From positions 1 through 45,131 of the forward strand of contig JAEORO010000217.1 of NCBI GenBank assembly GCA_016840855.1: a stretch of DNA of 45,131 nucleotides. Direction: 5' to 3'. This stretch comes from Candidatus Thorarchaeota archaeon. Its GTDB lineage: Archaea; Asgardarchaeota; Thorarchaeia; Thorarchaeales; Thorarchaeaceae. A program made the translations under genes and the position numbers. Below the pieces are notes generated by a model. That model worked only from the letters and a program-made list of their open reading frames with translations, was not told the DNA's origin and did not search any database. Below are positions 130 through 43,741 of this stretch, piece after piece. Each line of letters opens with the position of its first letter. The first letter of the stretch is position 1.

Positions 130-1308
130 CTATGATTGAGTTTGTTTCTCTCGCTCCTTTTCTAGTTCCTTTGTCCTTTTTCGGATATTATCTTCAGTCT
201 TTCCGATTCGTTTTTCAATATCCTTTATTCGCTTATCCCGGGATGCCAATTCATTTTCCATTCGTTTTTGTGCTGCTTGAAACACTTTACTGGCATCAGT
301 CCACTCTTGCTTTGCTAGCCGCATCTGTTCTTCGAGGCTCTCAAAATTGATTCTTTTAACCTCTGCTTGATTCCAGCAGTCACGCACCTCTGACTCTAAT
401 CTAGTTTGGACAGAATCAAGGTCTGATTTGAATTGCGCTAGCTCAGTGTACTGATTTGTTAGATCATTAAAAGAATCTTTAATGGTGGTGTCTTTGAGGA
501 AATCAGAGTCTGGAATCTCAGACATAAGTGTGTCAACTTGAGGTATCCGCGCTTTCGAAGTTAAGTCGCTCCTGCGAGACGGGGGTGGTGTTGGTTTGGT
601 TGAGATCACTGGTTTTGGCTCTGGTGTAGCTATGATTTCAGGTTTAGATAGAGGCTTATCTGGAGGCGCAGAGATAGGTTGTTGAGTAGGAGTGGGTTGT
701 GAAGTGAATTGCGCTGTTCCTGGAGGGCCCATGGGTTGTGATGATGACGCTGGCTTAGAAGGTGGTCCAGTAGTTCCAGGAGGCGTCATAGGTCGTGTTG
801 GTTGAGCCGACATAGAAGGTGGTCCTGGAGCTTCAGACGGAGCACTAGCTGAGGGCTGGACTGCTGAAGGCTGAGCAGCTGGTTTTGGTTCTACCGCCTG
901 CCGCTGGCTCTCTAAATCCCCCATTAGTTCTTGAACCTCACTAGCTCGAAGCATGCGTGTTTCTATGATGCCCTCGCCTGTTTCTTCAATACCCACTTCT
1001 TCTGCTCTTGCAAAAGCTTCCCTAGCTTTTTCCAACTCAGACTTAGGCTTTGAGAGTCCTGTGCTGGATCGGACACGGTCTCGAGCGACTGAACTTGGTT
1101 TGACCCATTGGTCATTGGTAGTGACTCTTACTTCGCTTACTGGAGCTGCAGGAGGCGGTGTCTTTTTCACTTCAGGTATCACCTCTGCTTCATCGGGCGA
1201 AGAAATCGTCTTTGGTTTCGGTTCTACAGAAAGAAGAAGTCCTCCGCATCGTATACAATACTTCCGAGTTGGCTGGTTTGCCCTACCGCATTTGGGACAG
1301 TTTTTCAC
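130..1308 (-). CDS. Hypothetical protein: N-terminal zinc ribbon, long Pro/Ser/Thr-rich disordered linker, C-terminal coiled coil
   Basis: CPKC-x10-CIRC at the N-terminus, a P/S/T/Q-rich middle and a heptad-rich E/K/Q/L C-terminus. Start moved to GTG at 1308 (VKNCPKC), preceded by a GGGGATG SD-like element; the ORF track starts at 1353. Confidence 0.75.
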   Translation of the reverse strand: MKNCPKCGRANQPTRKYCIRCGGLLLSVEPKPKTISSPDEAEVIPEVKKTPPPAAPVSEVRVTTNDQWVKPSSVARDRVRSSTGLSKPKSELEKAREAFARAEEVGIEETGEGIIETRMLRASEVQELMGDLESQRQAVEPKPAAQPSAVQPSASAPSEAPGPPSMSAQPTRPMTPPGTTGPPSKPASSSQPMGPPGTAQFTSQPTPTQQPISAPPDKPLSKPEIIATPEPKPVISTKPTPPPSRRSDLTSKARIPQVDTLMSEIPDSDFLKDTTIKDSFNDLTNQYTELAQFKSDLDSVQTRLESEVRDCWNQAEVKRINFESLEEQMRLAKQEWTDASKVFQAAQKRMENELASRDKRIKDIEKRIGKTEDNIRKRTKELEKEREKQTQS

Positions 1309-1454
1309 TGATTCATCATCCCCATCAAGCGAATCAGCTAAAAATACGTACATCTGTGCTGTAAAGGTTTTCTAAGATACAAGCTACCGCCTCTCTATAA
1401 CCAAGGTAAGCTAATATTCAATGGATACTCGAGGTTATCTACCGGTGATATGAC

Positions 1455-3041
1455 TTGATGAGTCATGCGATCGAAGCTTTGCTAATAACCGACAAAGGTG
1501 GCGCACCCAGATTCTATATGCAGCTCGATCCAAAGGCTCTGAACATGGACCCAGTGATGGCTTCAAGTTTTTTTGCGGCTATTAACATGTTTTCGAAGGA
1601 AGTTTTCGATGAGCGATCTCCGGTGGTCCAAGTAGACTATGGAGCTCGATTGTTTACTTTAATTAATGGTGTCAACACAAATATGATTGCAGTCAGTGTT
1701 CAACGCCTTAATCAGGAATCACTCGATATCTTAGACTCACTTTTAGCTGAGTTTGAACTTGATTGGCTTGAGGTGGTTGATCCTTTTGATTTCAGTTTCG
1801 AAACCTCATTTGTGGATGTCTATCTGGAGGCATTTGGAGAACGAGTCATGGAGAAGCTCTCCCTGCGCCTATTAGGTGAAACCTGGGTGCCATATTTCAC
1901 GACCAAGCTTCAATCACGTGAAGCAGTATCCAGTCTGTTGATGAACTACATCAATGGTTCTAGAAACGTCAATGAGATAATCGAAGTTAGTGGATTATCG
2001 CGGCGCGAAGTTGTACTTGATCTCTCGAAATTATGGGCACATCGTATCATAAGGTTTCGAAATATGTTTAACTTCAATGATTTCATGACAACCGGAACTC
2101 AATTTGTAAGATATGCTCAAGCTACATCATCTGAAACACAAGACTTGAGGACTCTACATCCTGATATGGCTGACGTGATCCCACATCTTGCAGGATTAAT
2201 AGATGGACGTCGAACGGTTAGAGAAATTCTTGCTGAACTTGGAGCTCGCTACGACGAAAGTGAACTCCTGAGAGCTTTAGATTTCCTTATCGAAGTAGGA
2301 GTGATTGAAGCACTAACTCCAGAAAAGCGACGTATTCTTCTAGCAAAAGAAGCGTTGGAGCTTGCGATTCGTGTTGCTGAAGGTAGTTACAATGTCACCG
2401 AAGCAACAAATGCATTACAATTTGTAATGAAAAATACTAAAGCTCCAGAAGCACTAAGTCAGTTACTACTAAAAGATGGCAAGTGGGTTGTAGATTTTGA
2501 TTTTAAGATACTTGAAGGATTAAATCAGCGGCGGCTCATGTTGCTTTTTGGAGAATGGATGAAGATTTTGGCACAGTTTGTCAATGCACTAAATCCAGCT
2601 AAGCTTGAACGATATATCAGTAACTTAACAACTGTCTTTTCTCAACGTATCATAAGACGTTATTCCGCATTCGATTTGAGAGGATTTGAAGAATTCGCCT
2701 ATTGGTTAGAGATATTGAGCACTCCAACAAAGCCGCATGTTGGACCTATTGAAACAAGTCACCTGCAAATAGTATGGTCCAGTGCACTAGAAGAACTTGC
2801 ATATATTCTTGTGACGCGAGGTCATATCATCTATAAATCAGAGAGTATCACTCAAATTCGCTCTGCGTCAGGAACCCCCCTGATTGACTTACTTCCGGCG
2901 GAATGGGTTGGCCGAGATCGAGTGGAAACATTTGAACGCATAATGGTAGAATACTCTAATCTGGGTCCTGCGGCAAAATTAACACTATTAATCCTTGCAA
3001 CGCAACGAGGTATATTGATACCAAAAGAAATCATAATTTAG
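1455..3041 (+). CDS. Longin domain + tandem winged-helix protein, NPRL2/NPR2-like
   Basis: Longin-type N-terminus (IEALLITDKGGAPRF...DPVMASSFFAAINMFSKE), then VPYF...YINGSRNVNEI and a second IDGRRTVREI wHTH repeat. GGTGA SD at 1444-1448. Start is TTG 1455 or ATG 1458. Confidence 0.7.
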   Translation: MMSHAIEALLITDKGGAPRFYMQLDPKALNMDPVMASSFFAAINMFSKEVFDERSPVVQVDYGARLFTLINGVNTNMIAVSVQRLNQESLDILDSLLAEFELDWLEVVDPFDFSFETSFVDVYLEAFGERVMEKLSLRLLGETWVPYFTTKLQSREAVSSLLMNYINGSRNVNEIIEVSGLSRREVVLDLSKLWAHRIIRFRNMFNFNDFMTTGTQFVRYAQATSSETQDLRTLHPDMADVIPHLAGLIDGRRTVREILAELGARYDESELLRALDFLIEVGVIEALTPEKRRILLAKEALELAIRVAEGSYNVTEATNALQFVMKNTKAPEALSQLLLKDGKWVVDFDFKILEGLNQRRLMLLFGEWMKILAQFVNALNPAKLERYISNLTTVFSQRIIRRYSAFDLRGFEEFAYWLEILSTPTKPHVGPIETSHLQIVWSSALEELAYILVTRGHIIYKSESITQIRSASGTPLIDLLPAEWVGRDRVETFERIMVEYSNLGPAAKLTLLILATQRGILIPKEIII

Positions 3042-3116: not shown

Positions 3117-3632
3117 ATGAGCCCGTCCTATCTATTAAAAATCGTTACAGTCGGATCTGCTTCTGTTGGAAAAACAAGCATCATAATCAGATATTCTACT
3201 GGAACCTTTCGTGAACACTACTCCCCAACATTAGGTGTAGGATTTGCATACAAGAAAATGGATGTTGACGACAACTCAGTAAACCTTCAAATCTGGGATT
3301 TGGGCTCTCAGGACTTTCTTGAACGCACGCGTGCGAACTATTACTTAGGAGCTCAAGGAGTAATCTTCATGTTTGATGTCACCTCTTGGGAATCCCTCAA
3401 TGAGGTAATTGAATGGAAAAATGAAGTTGATCGAAATCTAGAGGACTATCGAGCCATTCTTGTCGGAAACAAGACTGATCTTGCTATGGATCGGGTAGTT
3501 TCTACTGAGGAAGGCCTGAAAATAGCTTCGCAGATGGGGATAGACTACATTGAAACATCTGTTCGCCTTGATATGAATGTCAATAAATCATTCGAGATGA
3601 TTGCCAGAAGCATCATTGCCTCATTTCATTGA
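3117..3632 (+). CDS. Rab-like small GTPase (Ras superfamily)
   Basis: G1 GSASVGKTS, G2 PTLG, G3 WDLGSQ, G4 NKTD, G5 ETSV. RabF-like LGVGF, NLQIW, YYLGA and FMFDVT. No C-terminal Cys. GGTGA SD upstream. Confidence 0.95.
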   Translation: MSPSYLLKIVTVGSASVGKTSIIIRYSTGTFREHYSPTLGVGFAYKKMDVDDNSVNLQIWDLGSQDFLERTRANYYLGAQGVIFMFDVTSWESLNEVIEWKNEVDRNLEDYRAILVGNKTDLAMDRVVSTEEGLKIASQMGIDYIETSVRLDMNVNKSFEMIARSIIASFH

Positions 3633-8733: not shown

Positions 8734-8894
8734 GGCAATCACCCGCCATCAAATCCTCTCTCTCCTCAAGTTTTAATGATAGGTTTTATTCTATACTAAA
8801 AGGACAATGTTCTCAGCAACTTTCCACACCTATTTTTCAGCAAGCTCATATAGTATAACTATCAATGCAAAAGCGCATTGGAGTAGTGTCTTTC

Positions 8895-10229
8895 ATGACC
8901 TCCTTAGAAACAATACCTCACATGGCGATTTTTTGGGATGTGGAAAATGTAACTGACGAATCTGCTACACACAGAACCATGACTGAGAGGATACATCAGG
9001 CTGGCACTGTTACTCGTGCGTATGCATTTGCAGATTGGGACCATAGACGCCAAATGGCTGAGGAACTCTATGCATTAGGGTATGATTTAATTCACATCCC
9101 TGACCAACGTGACAACGCTAGCGACTATAAGATGGCTGCATACATTCTTGATCACCTTATGCATTATCCTGAAACCACACGTTATGTTCTCATCACCGGT
9201 GATGGTGACTTCAAGCTAATTGCAGGTGCACTCAAAGAACATGGTGTGGAATTGTGGCTGATTAGCAATCCAATCATTACAGCTTCTGAGTTGCCTGAGC
9301 TAGCAACAATATATAGCGACATTTTTTCTTTTAGGCCTGCTCTAGATTGTGTTCGCCCAGAAGACTGCGACGAGTCAGTTCAAAGCATTGTTCAATTGCG
9401 ACATCTAGCTGCTGTTCAACTTCAGGAAGTAATTCGAATAATCACTAAGACTGGTAACAAACCCGGTGTCGGTCATACAAAACACGTGATGAAATCATTG
9501 AACCCTGACTTCAATGAATCTGCAATGGGTTTCAGTCACTGGAATGAGTTTGTGGAATGGGCCGAAGCGCAAAAATACATTGTCCGGGAAGGTGAAATGC
9601 CTAGAACAATTCTGGCACTACCAGACAAAATATCTCCTGAGTCAATTAAGAAATCAAAAGAGGTCGATGAGGCTTTCTCGTTCCTGGCGCAGGTGACTGA
9701 GGAGCGCCTTAATGAAAAGCCACCATTTACTCTAATGGAGCTCGGAGTTGAGCTCCGAGAACGCGGACTGGACCTTGAAAAAATCGGTTACAGACGGTTT
9801 TCAGATTTTGTACTCTCTGCGGAAAAGCGCAATCTGATTCGAATCATTGCTCCAGAAAAAGAGGGTGATTCTCCCGTTGTTCTCCCGGTATATGATGTCG
9901 ATCGAATACAAGCTTGGTTTGAAAAGAACGTTGAGCGTTTATTTGGTTCATCAGTAAATGTTCCTAAGACTGCATTTCTGAAGAAGATAGGTCAGACACT
10001 TCTTGAAACACACACAACTCTTGATGAGCTCGAGAATTTCCTAACAGCGCCACGAGTAAAGGAGGTCTATAATGACATTCTTGCTGTAAGTGAAATCCCA
10101 TTTCTTCCTCCTTTCCAGCAGTCGTTGGCTCACATTCTGATTGGCAAACGATTAGAGTGCGTCGCCGTTATAGAAAAAGTCAATCAAGAACTCAGTCCTC
10201 TTGGTATCAAGCTTCAATGTCCTAAATAA
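8895..10229 (+). CDS. NYN (LabA/DUF88 PIN-like) nuclease with two OST-HTH/LOTUS domains
   Basis: FWDVENV, ASDYKM and ITGDGDF acidic motifs. LOTUS-like PDFNESAMGFSHWNEFVE and DLEKIGYRRFSDFV. Start uncertain (8865, 8895 or later). Confidence 0.85.
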   Translation: MTSLETIPHMAIFWDVENVTDESATHRTMTERIHQAGTVTRAYAFADWDHRRQMAEELYALGYDLIHIPDQRDNASDYKMAAYILDHLMHYPETTRYVLITGDGDFKLIAGALKEHGVELWLISNPIITASELPELATIYSDIFSFRPALDCVRPEDCDESVQSIVQLRHLAAVQLQEVIRIITKTGNKPGVGHTKHVMKSLNPDFNESAMGFSHWNEFVEWAEAQKYIVREGEMPRTILALPDKISPESIKKSKEVDEAFSFLAQVTEERLNEKPPFTLMELGVELRERGLDLEKIGYRRFSDFVLSAEKRNLIRIIAPEKEGDSPVVLPVYDVDRIQAWFEKNVERLFGSSVNVPKTAFLKKIGQTLLETHTTLDELENFLTAPRVKEVYNDILAVSEIPFLPPFQQSLAHILIGKRLECVAVIEKVNQELSPLGIKLQCPK

Positions 10230-11427: not shown

Positions 11428-12426
11428 GTGAATCTGCACATGACCTCCAATACTGATCAAGAAAAGAAGGTTGAAGAGAAGAAGGGACGCAGCAAACGGT
11501 ATATCCCTAACCTTGCAGAGTTCTATTTCAGACCCACATTTGATTGGACAAGAGAAGAAGCTGAAAGTCTGTATACTAGTGCTAAATCTCTCTCTTCAAA
11601 CCTCGAGTTAAATGTGGTCCGATTCGAAGACTGCGTCAATGGAATGAAGGAGCTCCCTGACAAGTCGGTTGACTTGGTCATTGCAGATCCTCCCTTTGGG
11701 ATCTCCTTTGATGGTAAGAGTGGTGTGTATAATCGCGATGAGCGTCTGGTCATTGAGGGATATGAGGAAACAGATGAGTCATATCATGAGTTCACTGTAA
11801 AATGGTTGGCTGAATTACCAAGAATCATGAAGTCGGAATCATCCGCCTATATCTTCAGCGGCTGGACAAATCTTGATGCCATTCTTCAAGGTGCTAGAGA
11901 GGCTGGTCTGGAAACCCTGAATCATCTAATTTGGCACTACCCATTTGGTGTGTATACAAAGAAACGGTTTGTCACCAGTCATTATCACATAGTTCTTCTT
12001 GTTAAGACACCAAGCAACTACTTCTTCAACAAAATTGAGAATTATCCTGAGGATGTCTGGTCTGTAAAACGTCAGTACCGCACAGGCCTTGCCAAAAATG
12101 CCACGACATTACCTCTTGATGTGGTTTCAAGATGCATCGATTTCTCTTCGAAACCCGGAGATATTGTGTTCGATCCCTTCATGGGAAATGGGACCACAGC
12201 AGTAAGCGCTAAAATGAATTTTCGTCATTTCATTGGTTTTGAGATTAATAGAAAACTTCGACCATTACTGGAGAAAGAACTTGCTAAGGCTACACCTGGC
12301 GAGTCATACATTCCATATACTGAACGTCTTCCAACAATCGAGAAGCTTGCAGAGATGTACCCCAAGGCATATCGTGAGTATCTCCAGAGGGAAAAGCAGC
12401 CGCCTCAGAAGAAAGTGAGAGCCTGA
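11428..12426 (+). CDS. Site-specific DNA methyltransferase, beta class (N6-adenine/N4-cytosine), apparently orphan
   Basis: Motif IV ADPPF precedes motif I FDPFMGNGTT, followed by FIGFEIN. Start GTG 11428 or ATG 11440. Confidence 0.9.
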   Translation: MNLHMTSNTDQEKKVEEKKGRSKRYIPNLAEFYFRPTFDWTREEAESLYTSAKSLSSNLELNVVRFEDCVNGMKELPDKSVDLVIADPPFGISFDGKSGVYNRDERLVIEGYEETDESYHEFTVKWLAELPRIMKSESSAYIFSGWTNLDAILQGAREAGLETLNHLIWHYPFGVYTKKRFVTSHYHIVLLVKTPSNYFFNKIENYPEDVWSVKRQYRTGLAKNATTLPLDVVSRCIDFSSKPGDIVFDPFMGNGTTAVSAKMNFRHFIGFEINRKLRPLLEKELAKATPGESYIPYTERLPTIEKLAEMYPKAYREYLQREKQPPQKKVRA

Positions 12427-12431
12427 TTCAG

Positions 12432-13871
12432 ATGGAGATAGAGGATCTGTATAAACGGCATGGGTCTGAGCGTGACCAGCTTGCAGATGCCACTAGTATT
12501 AGCGACGTCTATACAAGAGAGTATGGGACAGAGCTTACACTATGGGAATCTCAACTGCTCCGACAGTTTCAGGAGAAGGTATCAGCTCGTCGATATCGAT
12601 ATCGTGGATTTGTTCGTCATACACGGGACACAACACTTGTCCTTCTGACTCCGAGTCCTTGGTTGATGGATGGAGAATTCATCTTCTTTGAGAAAGACAG
12701 GGAGCTACCTCCTGATGGCGCCTATATTGAGGTCGTTGGCTCTAGTGTAGCTGCACCACGCCCTCTCGAAGAGTCTCAAACAATCATTCGCGCAATTGCA
12801 GCAGAAACTTGGACTCCACTATCAATTGACTTTATCTCAGAAATCCCACCACCAATGAATCTCAACGAGCTATCCAATCTTCTATTTGAGTATGTAGGAA
12901 TGGCTGAAGCTAGCAAGAGAGTGTTCACACGTCTTTTCGTTTCAAGTCCTCCCTTTCAGGACAGCATTGGGGGACTCACAATGGGAATTCAGGCTATTGC
13001 CTCCCAAACTCAAGTCCGAAGGCTACTTTCATTCATCAGGCAAGTGCTTCCTCCAACAATGAAAGGGCGCCAACACTCATTTAGGCACGTTCAAGGAATC
13101 AAAGTTAGGGCGCCTCGTTTCTGGCGATTTGATGTTGGATCATTCTCAATTAACAAGATGCAACAGATATGTGTACAACGTCGAGACCCTGCTGGTTATC
13201 AGGAGGTCTCTCTTGGTGCCCTAACAGAAACTGAAACAGCTTTTCTCCCTGATATACCACTAGCAATATCAACTGAAGATTTCTGGATAGAAACCCGAAA
13301 CCCATCACATCTACGGTTACCAATCTTGAAGTCAGCAATCACTTTTCAAATGCTAACTCCAGAGATTACCAAACGGAGCGTTGATGCGGGGACTGAACAT
13401 GTACTAACACGTTTGGATGCTCTGCGAGAGAGCTTTGGATTTGAAGAACGAGTACTTGCACGGGGACATTTACTCGATGCAGACGCTCTTGGTCGCCCAC
13501 TCAGTACTATAAAACTTGCACGCTCCACAGCCCGTGCGTATTGGAAGGAAACAGTCACTGCCAAGGATATAAGATACGCTTGGGACCGAGTACTCGAACC
13601 AGCTTTAAAAGAGTTCATTGAGCTCACCGAATTGAAAGAGAGTGCGGAGAAGGACTGGGGTAAAGAGAGTCGAATTGACAAGTTCAATACCAAGGTACTG
13701 AAGGCAATAAAGAAACTAGATACTGGAAAACGAGGGTCTCTTGGACCGACTCTGAATGAAATTGCAGAAGAAGCTGGTGTTGAGCGCCATGTAGCTGCAG
13801 AAACCCTTGCGCGGATGAAGGACAACAGCATCCTCTATGAACCACGCCCGGGTCACTACAGGTTAGTCTGA
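12432..13871 (+). CDS. Divergent, probably ATPase-inactive MCM-like protein (OB fold, degenerate AAA+, lid, C-terminal wHTH)
   Basis: LPPDGAYIEVVG (OB), GRPLSTIKLARSTARAYWKETVTAKDIRYA (MCM lid/sensor-2) and terminal LYEPRPGHYRLV (archaeal MCM wHTH end). No Walker A GKS/T, no Walker B DE. Confidence 0.65.
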   Translation: MEIEDLYKRHGSERDQLADATSISDVYTREYGTELTLWESQLLRQFQEKVSARRYRYRGFVRHTRDTTLVLLTPSPWLMDGEFIFFEKDRELPPDGAYIEVVGSSVAAPRPLEESQTIIRAIAAETWTPLSIDFISEIPPPMNLNELSNLLFEYVGMAEASKRVFTRLFVSSPPFQDSIGGLTMGIQAIASQTQVRRLLSFIRQVLPPTMKGRQHSFRHVQGIKVRAPRFWRFDVGSFSINKMQQICVQRRDPAGYQEVSLGALTETETAFLPDIPLAISTEDFWIETRNPSHLRLPILKSAITFQMLTPEITKRSVDAGTEHVLTRLDALRESFGFEERVLARGHLLDADALGRPLSTIKLARSTARAYWKETVTAKDIRYAWDRVLEPALKEFIELTELKESAEKDWGKESRIDKFNTKVLKAIKKLDTGKRGSLGPTLNEIAEEAGVERHVAAETLARMKDNSILYEPRPGHYRLV

Positions 13872-13875
13872 TAGT

Positions 13876-14472
13876 CTATGAGAACGATCTGAAGAACTCC
13901 TCAGGTTCTTGTCCTTCCTCAATAATTTCAATCTCTTGCACTCCGACACGCTCTGCGTCATATCTTCGTGCTAGGATAGTACCATCAAACTTCTCTCGGG
14001 CTGTTGCATCCTTACCACGCCACACAAAAATATCATCCCACGCATCCAGTAGGAAGACATCATCACTCTTCAAGGAGTCCTTACTGAGTTCGACTTCTGC
14101 AAAGAAGGTTTCATCCCCTTCGCGATGAACTCGCCAGAGTTTATGCTCATGACTTTCCATGTGGACCTTCTTCAATATGCCTTCAGTATCTTCATCGGTC
14201 AGTTGGAAGTCATCAAAGAGTGCTTTGAATTCAGCAGGTTCATTTCCTCCCTCAATTCGGTCAATGTCTGCTTTTCCTTCACGCGCTTGATCACTCATCA
14301 CTGCTGATGCGGCTGTGAGAAATTTCTCATCAACTTGTGAATTGGGACCAATCCACAAGTACAGCTTTAAACCAGCGTCAACAAGATAGCAGTCGCCAAG
14401 CCCGAAGTTTCCCGGGTTTTTCATTTTAACAAGGCGACCTTTCTGAATGTGGTATGTAGTTGGTTCTGGCAT
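13876..14472 (-). CDS. Two-domain gelsolin-like protein (Asgard 2DGel type)
   Basis: Two gelsolin repeats: GDCYLVDAGLKLYLWIGPNSQVDEK...GGNEPAEF and DDVFLLDAWDDIFVWRGKDATAREK...EGQEPEEF. Confidence 0.92.
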   Translation of the reverse strand: MPEPTTYHIQKGRLVKMKNPGNFGLGDCYLVDAGLKLYLWIGPNSQVDEKFLTAASAVMSDQAREGKADIDRIEGGNEPAEFKALFDDFQLTDEDTEGILKKVHMESHEHKLWRVHREGDETFFAEVELSKDSLKSDDVFLLDAWDDIFVWRGKDATAREKFDGTILARRYDAERVGVQEIEIIEEGQEPEEFFRSFS

Positions 14473-19915: not shown

Positions 19916-21328
19916 GTGACTCAGCCAGAAATCAACACCCATAGTCAGGACGAAACGACAATGACTGAGGACCAAGGTCCAACTTTTGAAAGTAAACTCT
20001 CACCGAGTGCGACAGCGATATTACGGGTCGTTAAGACTTTTGAAGAAGGAGGGCAGCTACAGGTCTTTCAGACTGATGCAGAATTTGAATTGCTACACAC
20101 AATGGTCACGTCTTATAGAGGAAGTTTACATTCACTCTTAACACGAAGACTAGAAGAAGTAGTTAATCTCGGCGGTGTTTCTATCATCTCTCAAAGAGAT
20201 GTCATGAGTCTAATTGTTAATCTCTGGGAGGATAATATATCTCGTTTATCACGTACAGAACTTCCTTTTCTTGAAACCGCTATCAAGAATCCTGGAGCAC
20301 CATTGAATACTCTAGCCAAAAGCGCAGGGTTGAGCTATGCACAGACAAGGAGAGCTCAAAAAAGACTCAGTGAATCAGGTGTTCTAAGAACAGTCGGGAT
20401 GTTGAATACACATAAACTTGGACTTGAGCGTGTAATCATCATCTTCGAGTCTCCCTCCCTAGTTCTTTCAGGTCCCTATGTGCAGAAGACCCTCATGATT
20501 GATGGTTATTCTCCTTTGGTGCTTGTTGTTGCTACAATACCGCATCAAAAGAGATCAGAGCTTCTAGACACAATAAGGTCTTTCCGAGGGAGCACAGGTG
20601 GCGCATCTGTTTGGGCACTTTCTGATGGCAGACCTTTCTTCAGTGGCAGATATTTCAATCCTAACAATGGCTGGAATCTTGACCTTCTGCACTTTCGTCT
20701 AATGTTACGCAAGGGTGGCGATCCATTGTTACTCGCAGATGTAGCCACTCCCAGTCCACATATGCCTAATCGCTTCACCTACGCTGATGTTAAGATAATT
20801 GACGCTCTTGTTGGCGAATACAATAGCACAGGAAATGAGATAGTTAACACAACTGGATTGTCAGCTTCCACCGCATTCAGAAAACGGTCTCAGCTCATCA
20901 AGAACCGAGTAGTATTGCCAAGAGCGAGAGTGAACATTCCTCGTCTTAGTGACAGAGTAGTTTGCCTACTCAGTCCTGAATGCTCAGGCGACATCATCAC
21001 TGCATGGAATCATCTTCCAATCACCTATCAAAGTAGGATTCAAAATATTGAGGATCCTTCAGAAAAGAAGGTTTTACTTGTTTCAGCTTTGCCAGCTGGT
21101 TCTGGTCGAGATTTAATAGAGGTACTTGATGATGAAACTTCGAAAATTCATGACTACAGTGCTCATGTAGTAGCAGCTGGAACAGGGCAATCAACCAAAG
21201 TCGCTAATATGTATGATCGACAGAATGACAGCTGGAAATGGGATGTTTCGAAGTATTTTGATGCATTAACATATAGTGTGGTGCGAAGCGAAGCTTCTCC
21301 TTCTAATATCCCACTTGACTTGGCGTAG
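19916..21328 (+). CDS. Hypothetical regulator with two Lrp/AsnC-like wHTH units
   Basis: LAKSAGLSYAQTRRAQKRLSESGVL...KLGL and IVNTTGLSASTAFRKRSQLIKNRVV...RLS, each followed by an alpha/beta segment ending in W-x-L/W-D. Confidence 0.65.
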   Translation: MTQPEINTHSQDETTMTEDQGPTFESKLSPSATAILRVVKTFEEGGQLQVFQTDAEFELLHTMVTSYRGSLHSLLTRRLEEVVNLGGVSIISQRDVMSLIVNLWEDNISRLSRTELPFLETAIKNPGAPLNTLAKSAGLSYAQTRRAQKRLSESGVLRTVGMLNTHKLGLERVIIIFESPSLVLSGPYVQKTLMIDGYSPLVLVVATIPHQKRSELLDTIRSFRGSTGGASVWALSDGRPFFSGRYFNPNNGWNLDLLHFRLMLRKGGDPLLLADVATPSPHMPNRFTYADVKIIDALVGEYNSTGNEIVNTTGLSASTAFRKRSQLIKNRVVLPRARVNIPRLSDRVVCLLSPECSGDIITAWNHLPITYQSRIQNIEDPSEKKVLLVSALPAGSGRDLIEVLDDETSKIHDYSAHVVAAGTGQSTKVANMYDRQNDSWKWDVSKYFDALTYSVVRSEASPSNIPLDLA

Positions 21329-42934: not shown

Positions 42935-43741
42935 CTAATCCACCTCCAATTCAAGGTCTGTGAAGAGATCTTCCTCTTCAACTTCTTCTCCTCGTCCAGG
43001 ATTGAGAACTCTCAGGAGTTTTGCATCTGCTGCAGTAATGATTTCTTGACGTTTCCTGAATCCTACCGTAGAGGCAATTCGAATTGCATGCACTTCTGGG
43101 TCTAATTCTTCTAAGTCGGATGGCTTATGGACCCTCACCTCAATATAGAGAGATGGATGGAGGTCTCTCACAGCTTTTGGTGTTCGATAACCTGTAGAAA
43201 CCATCGCCACGCGTCCTTTCCGATTTTGGCGTGTTGCACTATCAATTCCTTTGGGCCTTCGCCAAGAGCTTCTTACTCTAGTCCATCTATGAGCAAGCTC
43301 ATGATCGAAACTAGGTTTGCGTTTCTTTTTCTCCCTAGCAATCTTTAGTATACGCTGGTCAGTGTTCTGTACTCTGAGAGGTGCCTCGTACTTTGGTTTC
43401 TTTTTGGGAGCGGCTTTCTTTTTCTTCGGTTTTTCCTCTTTAGCTTCCTTTGGTTTTTCTTTCTTAGGAGTAACTTTCTTTTCTGACTTTGGTTCAGCCT
43501 TCTTTGTTGGCTTTTTCTCTTTAACTGCCTTCTTCTTGGGAGCAGCATCTGGAAGCATCGCCTGTGCAGCTTCTATTATTTTTGCAGCGCTGTTTTCACT
43601 TAAACCATCTACTTTTTCGGCGAGTTTGTTAGCCTTTGCACGGGACATGCTCAACACCGTTTTGATACCCGCCTCTTTGAGCTTCTCCTCTAGTTTTGGT
43701 CCCACTCCTGGCAGGTCTTTCAGTTCTGGCTTCTTTGACAT
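42935..43741 (-). CDS. rpl32e: 50S ribosomal protein eL32 with N-terminal HhH domain and Lys-rich linker
   Basis: LPGVGPKLEEKLKEAGI (HhH); WRRPKGIDS, GYRTP, LHPS, ASTVG.RKR and VLN (eL32 core). Confidence 0.95.
   Translation of the reverse strand: MSKKPELKDLPGVGPKLEEKLKEAGIKTVLSMSRAKANKLAEKVDGLSENSAAKIIEAAQAMLPDAAPKKKAVKEKKPTKKAEPKSEKKVTPKKEKPKEAKEEKPKKKKAAPKKKPKYEAPLRVQNTDQRILKIAREKKKRKPSFDHELAHRWTRVRSSWRRPKGIDSATRQNRKGRVAMVSTGYRTPKAVRDLHPSLYIEVRVHKPSDLEELDPEVHAIRIASTVGFRKRQEIITAADAKLLRVLNPGRGEEVEEEDLFTDLELEVD

Follow-up and report, generated by a model that had tools for sequence, protein, structure and literature searches.

The 45,131-nucleotide stretch of DNA analysed here (the window) covers positions 1 to 45,131 of contig JAEORO010000217.1 of a Candidatus Thorarchaeota archaeon (assembly GCA_016840855.1). 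Between a DNA methyltransferase gene and a convergent gelsolin gene, it contains an open reading frame (ORF) for a protein that is a real, conserved, ATPase-dead paralogue of the replicative helicase MCM. This MCM-like protein is descended from the MCM scaffold and works like it, yet it is no MCM helicase. Descriptions of archaeal replication usually feature just one MCM, a homohexamer, and the non-catalytic MCM relatives MCM-BP and MCMDC2 are treated as eukaryotic inventions. The compact ATPase-dead paralogue has no Pfam family and is kept in every sampled genome of one Thorarchaeota family. Among the matches listed, its named database copies are annotated as 'hypothetical protein', save one mislabelled as MazF, and no description of the family was found in the open-access literature searched.

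Predicted fold and missing motifs

The family was analysed through a 51-row alignment (A5) of Thorarchaeota sequences, distant matches and six Thermoproteota loci, one of which (L052) belongs to G400, a genome flagged unpublished. The AlphaFold model built from A5 has a mean predicted local distance difference test score (pLDDT) of 85.4 and a predicted template modelling score (pTM) of 0.81, with residues 1-22 under a pLDDT of 50; a model built from a Thorarchaeota-only alignment has a pLDDT of 52 and is confident only in the OB barrel and the winged helix. The modelled chain runs from a beta barrel (47-130, its start falling within residues 43-50 depending on the model range) through two helices and a loop, an alpha/beta core (183-290), a helical lid (291-376) and a long helix to a winged helix (413-479). 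In this order an OB fold precedes an AAA+ core that belongs to the helix-2-insert clade.

A Foldseek search of the PDB with the model returns at least 409 matches at an expectation value (E) of 1e-3 or lower, the best at 7.3e-13, and every one of the 40 rows listed is a chain of MCM2-7 or of an archaeal MCM, with alignments of 401-592 columns. The VIA fold search agrees: its top 11 VIA-wide matches and its top 50 second-look matches are all MCM-family chains, and the MCMs are followed by other members of the helix-2-insert AAA+ clade, namely RavA (11.3), a MoxR-like ATPase (10.6), BchI (9.1) and BrxL (8.7). A preliminary description made from the sequence had proposed an OB fold, an AAA-like core, a lid and a winged helix in MCM order, and the confident model and MCM-only fold matches support this; a fold without the OB and AAA-lid arrangement emerges neither from the model nor from Foldseek. 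The nine peptide strings quoted in that description are all present in the order given, at residues 92-103, 153-172, 181-207, 271-279, 309-313, 331-333, 354-369, 375-383 and 468-479.

Table 1. The MCM-like gene, its domains and selected neighbouring genes (window coordinates)
Feature	Position	Strand	Description
MCM-like ORF, whole	ATG 12432 to TGA 13871	+	479 aa plus stop; ATPase-dead MCM paralogue; basis: ORF, model, fold searches
Residues 1-46	12432..12569	+	N-terminal segment, short helices, mostly low model confidence; occupies the place of MCM subdomain A
Residues 47-130	12570..12821	+	OB-like beta barrel, zinc finger absent; fold searches align the barrel to the MCM N-terminal tier
Residues 131-182	12822..12977	+	Linker, two helices, family signature loop VSSPP...GG
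Residues 183-290	12978..13301	+	Reduced AAA+-like alpha/beta core; basis: model, fold searches, alignment
Residues 291-376	13302..13559	+	AAA-lid domain, homologous to MCM lid; contains GRPLS..LRLA.S.ARA motif
Residues 377-412	13560..13667	+	Long helix joining lid to winged helix (helix 377-409 in model)
Residues 413-479	13668..13868	+	MCM-type winged-helix domain, C-terminal end LYEPRPGHYRLV
N6/N4 DNA methyltransferase	11428..12426	+	PF01555, E 8.6e-35; stop codon 5 nt before MCM-like start
Two-repeat gelsolin	13876-14472	-	E 3.7e-30; convergent, usual downstream neighbour in Thorarchaeota
Ras-family small GTPase	3117-3632	+	E 1.5e-45

Curated libraries give only sub-threshold matches to the window protein, all within its last 120 residues: MCM_lid and MCM_C each match at E 0.2, and the NCBIfam MCM model NF040949 scores 12.3 bits against a cut-off of 940 and covers residues 359-478 only. 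PF00493 and MCM_OB do not match the window protein, and PF00493 is not among the families listed for the 51 members; MCM_C is matched in 15 of the 51 and MCM_WH_arc in 13. With the single sequence, phmmer finds one chain in the PDB, the MCM chain 8x7t_D (E 2e-4, residues 358-479). The A5 profile finds the same chain at 1.4e-10, as well as 4fdg_B (5e-10) and the winged helix of SsoMCM, 2m45_A (1.6e-8). When A5 is aligned by hhalign with 19 canonical MCMs, residues 300-477 correspond to MCM 514-687 with a probability of 97.7 and E 2e-12. This span is the whole MCM lid and winged helix, and the MCM-like protein keeps both. The winged helix is also the best-conserved domain among the Thorarchaeota members (majority frequency 0.85). 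In other Asgard and Thermoproteota genomes, the family profile matches the C-terminal ends of ORFs that are about 680-700 aa long, with values up to 1e-13.

Close homologues number 211 matches; the best 120 listed are 57-94% identical and nearly all 479 aa long, and those that bear names (among the matches listed) come from Thorarchaeota metagenome-assembled genomes (MAGs). An exhaustive phmmer search of 1.84 billion representatives yields 38 matches, some of them to relatives that are full-length (430-490 aa) and 22-31% identical. Profile searches, which are dominated by word pre-filtering, added no distant members, their only non-family matches being two canonical MCMs (E 2.5e-5 and 4.4e-4). 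The Protein Atlas language-model search places unnamed archaeal clusters first (0.96) and gives clusters of MCM, MCM-BP and MCMDC2 as leads at 0.77-0.86; unnamed Methanobacteriota clusters were also flagged there.

The ATPase motifs and the zinc-finger pattern of MCM are largely missing from the family. The Walker A pattern G..G.[AG]K[ST] occurs in 0/51 family members versus 18/19 canonical MCMs, the SRFD arginine finger in 3/51 versus 17/19, and CxxC in 2/51 versus 18/19. The Walker B pattern hhhhD[DE], found in 19/19 canonical MCMs, appears in five of the 51 members at scattered, non-equivalent places. At the place of the P-loop, only three residues (189-191) would join strand 183-188 to helix 192-205 according to the model. 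The window protein has one cysteine in total and therefore no zinc finger. It is without subdomain A, zinc finger, P-loop, Walker B and arginine finger, and because the ATPase motifs are missing it cannot perform the canonical ATP-driven motor action. The motif counts (51 versus 19 sequences), the fold, and the homology of lid and winged helix bear out the earlier proposal of an ATPase-dead, shortened, zinc-finger-less MCM paralogue. Compared with canonical archaeal MCM (for example, PDB 8x7t, 4fdg and 6mii, and the 694-aa MCM encoded in the same genome), the protein is 215 residues shorter, and its family forms a separate clade that lacks subdomain A, the zinc finger, Walker A, Walker B and SRFD.

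Other positions are strongly conserved in A5. P173, G180, G181, E258 and R368 are invariant (51/51), S260 (49/51), D274 (48, plus three with E), P276 (45), P356 (49) and S358 (49) nearly so, and two columns admit two alternatives, K/R355 in 48/51 and D/N349 in 51/51. The polar residues conserved in core and lid (E258, S260, D274, K/R355 and R368) would fit a protein whose remodelled site still binds a nucleotide or some other ligand and which acts as a switch or as an enzyme of an unconventional kind. This alternative is quite improbable, since neither a glycine-rich loop nor a conserved Lys-Ser/Thr lies between strand 183-188 and helix 192-205, and no acidic Walker B pair is conserved family-wide.

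Selection, distribution and phylogeny

The MCM-like gene is under strong purifying selection. Against its closest relative (L010, 94% identity) the ratio of non-synonymous to synonymous substitution rates (dN/dS) is 0.074 at a dS of 0.39; seven further pairs give 0.045-0.099 with dS saturating, and two pairs are too diverged to compute. A full-length copy is found with the family profile in all 85 of 85 genomes of the window genome's own taxonomic family. The preliminary description had named patchy distribution with relaxed selection, indicating a decaying mobile-element MCM, as a sign against its reading, and a dN/dS of 0.07 together with this complete presence indicates that the gene is not decaying.

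Outside this family, full-length copies are scarce. Among 100 Asgard genomes at least 95% complete, searched for full-length matches at E<=1e-14, copies occur in the window genome itself and in 17/17 further genomes of its family, and in 0/82 of the others. Less complete genomes of other Asgard families with full-length copies are G006, G088, G306 and G042-G044, and one database cluster is labelled Odinarchaeota. The matches in other Asgard families fall mostly on profile positions 357-474 in ORFs of about 690 aa, which are canonical MCMs. Occurrence in Thermoproteota is patchy: a full-length copy is present in 7/301 sampled genomes. In the class of the Thermoproteota genome G544 the count is 7/151, one of these being a fragment with two stops, and in its order 4/81. 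The one named Thermoproteota carrier is a Nitrosotalea MAG (flagged unpublished). A search of genome contigs gave one locus (L051) with alignment A4 and none with P0133.

Two side observations arose from these searches. A family fragment in Thermoproteota (L098, G784:C9:14148-14522), which spans profile positions 220-341 and is broken by one TAG and one TAA, is apparently a decayed copy. Three ORFs of 1216-1261 aa encode canonical MCMs in which PF00493 is split (L086, L087 and L088, in G161, G397 and G389), consistent with intein insertions; several ORFs of about 1100-2100 aa among the profile matches have the same pattern.

A maximum-likelihood tree was built from the lid and winged-helix region (70 rows, with all 19 MCMs among them; rows of the family with fewer than 120 residues there were dropped). 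All canonical MCMs split from the MCM-like family (100/100). The Thorarchaeota MCM-like clade (100/99) has P0124/P0159 (100/97) as its sister group and stands apart from the Thorarchaeota MCM. Because the tree sets the family outside the canonical MCM clade, it is an old, separate lineage; the tree is unrooted and therefore no order of events is claimed. A recent duplication of the Thorarchaeota MCM was considered and is rejected on the same branching. The suggestion that the paralogue might be a step towards heteromeric MCM rings is not supported, on three counts, namely its absence from the 82 other near-complete Asgard genomes, its carriers in Thermoproteota, and its branching apart from the Thorarchaeota MCM.

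The data also bear on a mobile origin, in which the gene would be the remnant of a mobile-element or defence-island MCM, that is, a decaying or domesticated viral helicase, or part of a BREX-like or restriction-modification-like module with the methyltransferase. The low dN/dS, a nearly constant length of about 479 aa and the presence in 85/85 genomes at a syntenic core locus all contradict it. Two scans of viral contigs, with profiles A1 and A4, found no relatives. There is no PADLOC match, the PHROG match is weak and falls on a helicase C-terminus, and viral structures fit worse than cellular MCMs. This explanation is largely refuted and is regarded as highly improbable.

Gene neighbourhood and possible role

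The Thorarchaeota neighbourhood was tabulated for 44 distinct genomes with flanks of 1.5 kb; one genome has no upstream flank, which leaves 43 informative. The methyltransferase gene lies directly upstream of the MCM-like gene on the same strand in 36/43. Two more genomes (L020/L036 in G348, and L023 in G349) have it within about 1.3 kb, with a gap of about 1.2 kb that suggests an inserted gene, and in the remaining 5/43 it lies outside the flank while the MCM-like gene is kept. The MCM-like protein might be a DNA-targeting or regulatory partner of this methyltransferase and not of the helicase, for example by linking methylation with replication or by recognising methylated DNA. The frequency of the pairing, the two genomes with the enzyme nearby and the 5-nt gap in the window favour such a partnership, and the methyltransferase resembles type II or orphan enzymes, with no nuclease nearby. 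However, the five genomes without the flanking enzyme retain the MCM-like gene, and none of the seven non-Thorarchaeota loci with long flanks (L051 and L090-L095) has an adjoining methyltransferase. Because these Thorarchaeota genomes and the non-Thorarchaeota loci go without that neighbour, the MCM-like family is older and more widespread than the pairing, and the partnership is considered unlikely.

Replication and repair genes adjoin several of the seven long-flank loci. In the Thermoproteota genome G544, one strand of L090:7968-14294 carries the MCM-like gene, a GINS gene after a 3-nt gap, a canonical MCM gene and a Hel308-like helicase gene, and the genes for the small and large RFC subunits lie divergently upstream of the MCM-like gene. 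L091 (G556) has an identical layout; the two are close relatives (89% identity in the MCM-like protein, 96.6% in MCM) and so represent one lineage. A family-B DNA polymerase gene is the convergent neighbour at L094, a UvrD-like helicase gene lies directly downstream at L092, NurA lies 2.6 kb off at L093, and PCNA lies 3 kb off at L051 (in G400). L095 has no replication-related neighbour.

The reading held here, with a little better than even confidence, is that this non-catalytic MCM paralogue most likely serves chromosome replication or genome maintenance as a factor without motor activity. We infer such a role because of the fold, the conservation and the genes found around it in other lineages. 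The OB fold and the conserved MCM-like winged helix would bind DNA or MCM-contacting proteins, candidates being MCM itself, GINS and Orc1/Cdc6, and the protein would serve as a scaffold, a loading or unloading cofactor, or a competitor. The narrower role put forward in the preliminary description, that of regulating, chaperoning or unloading the replicative helicase, can only be inferred; its sole positive hint is the GINS-MCM-Hel308 gene order in the one Thermoproteota lineage (two genomes). If the protein does bind the helicase or its loaders, it would offer a tractable archaeal model for dead MCM copies that regulate live ones.

Several observations weigh against a replication role. The MCM-operon context is restricted to two closely related genomes among the seven long-flank loci and is absent at four short-flank loci; the order and class of G544 were searched and contain no more genomes with the MCM-like, GINS and MCM layout. 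In the window's own genome, the canonical MCM gene (L001:673-2754) has a GINS (Sld5-domain) gene directly upstream (G000:C236:19597-19917, L099), and this pair sits on another contig, away from the MCM-like gene. In Thorarchaeota the gene that usually adjoins it encodes a DNA methyltransferase, and this points in another direction than replication. The invariant polar residues E258, S260, D274, K/R355 and R368 might be part of a ligand-binding or catalytic site that has gone unrecognised. In addition, hhalign against MCM gives no significant alignment of the N-terminal part (E 0.45 for residues 1-299, 0.24 for 1-140 and 0.41 for 135-300), so the MCM ancestry of the first 299 residues rests on the predicted structure. 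Though insignificant, the best of these N-terminal alignments run colinear with the motif-to-motif pairings that had been proposed, at the helix before the P-loop and at the P-loop region. This is suggestive only, and those pairings within the N-terminal 300 residues are plausible.

Another explanation of the winged helix would make the protein a transcription or chromatin regulator on an MCM-derived oligomerisation or sensing scaffold, with no replication role. Matches to the winged-helix domains of regulators exist, but they are expected of any winged helix; the best winged-helix sequence matches are MCM's own, and several lineages have the gene close to replication and repair genes. A regulator of this kind is considered as unlikely as the methyltransferase partnership.

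Other non-catalytic MCM relatives offer comparisons for the replication factor proposed here. MkMCM2 of Methanopyrus kandleri is known as an inactive MCM. The present family resembles such inactive homologues in combining an MCM fold with the lack of functional ATPase motifs and the presence of a canonical MCM in the same genome. PMC4619765 describes MkMCM2 as an MCM homologue of solved structure (3F8T) and gives it subdomains A, B and C, whereas the MCM-like family keeps the OB fold only and adds a well-conserved winged helix. Among the best 60 of 79 PDB matches of the family profile 3f8t is absent, and no direct comparison was made. Several archaea are known to carry multiple MCM paralogues (PMC3307487), and the winged helix of canonical MCM is presented as a regulatory domain in PMC4357721. 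A survey of the Asgard replisome treats MCM as mostly single-copy, and no mention of the MCM-like paralogue was found in it (PMC12680538).

The preliminary description also likened the protein to MCM-BP and MCMDC2, and this kinship stands as a concept only. The MCM-BP profile PF09739 matches neither the window protein (E<=1), nor 24 distant members (E<=0.1), nor any protein of the whole genome (E<=1), and it is not among the families listed for the 51 members; no MCM-BP structures turned up in the PDB searches. With language-model features of residues 1-300, MCM_bind clusters come first (0.83, a sub-threshold lead). MCMDC2, regarded as having no helicase activity, is an MCM-domain protein of animals whose N-terminal domain is a different one (PF26063), and its clusters are leads at 0.77-0.81. 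What speaks for kinship is limited to sub-threshold language-model leads (0.81-0.83). A bolder reading, judged unlikely, is that the protein would be an archaeal counterpart, possibly a distant homologue, of MCM-BP. It would bind MCM subunits or GINS and Orc1/Cdc6 through its OB tier and winged helix and so control the assembly, loading or removal of the helicase; co-expression with the orphan methyltransferase in Thorarchaeota would tie this control to the methylation of new DNA.

Other genes in the window

The remaining window is core chromosome, with a ribosomal protein operon and genes for SecY, a Cbf5-like pseudouridine synthase, TiaS and Fpg/Nei. The gelsolin and the Ras-family GTPase belong to the eukaryote-like proteins typical of Asgard archaea; together with the named homologues from Thorarchaeota MAGs they fit the Asgard assignment of the DNA. 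No Pfam match at E<=1e-5 is found for three ORFs of 407-528 aa, at 130-1353 (-), 1455-3041 (+) and 19916-21328 (+). In the 454-aa product of 8865-10229 (+), an NYN nuclease domain (E 1.5e-18) stands at the N-terminus, and OST-HTH/LOTUS matches weakly (E 0.005). The ORF for ribosomal protein L32e at 42935-43741 (-) encodes 268 aa, with an N-terminal HHH_5 domain (E 2.7e-12) before the L32e domain, which is an unusual ribosomal fusion.

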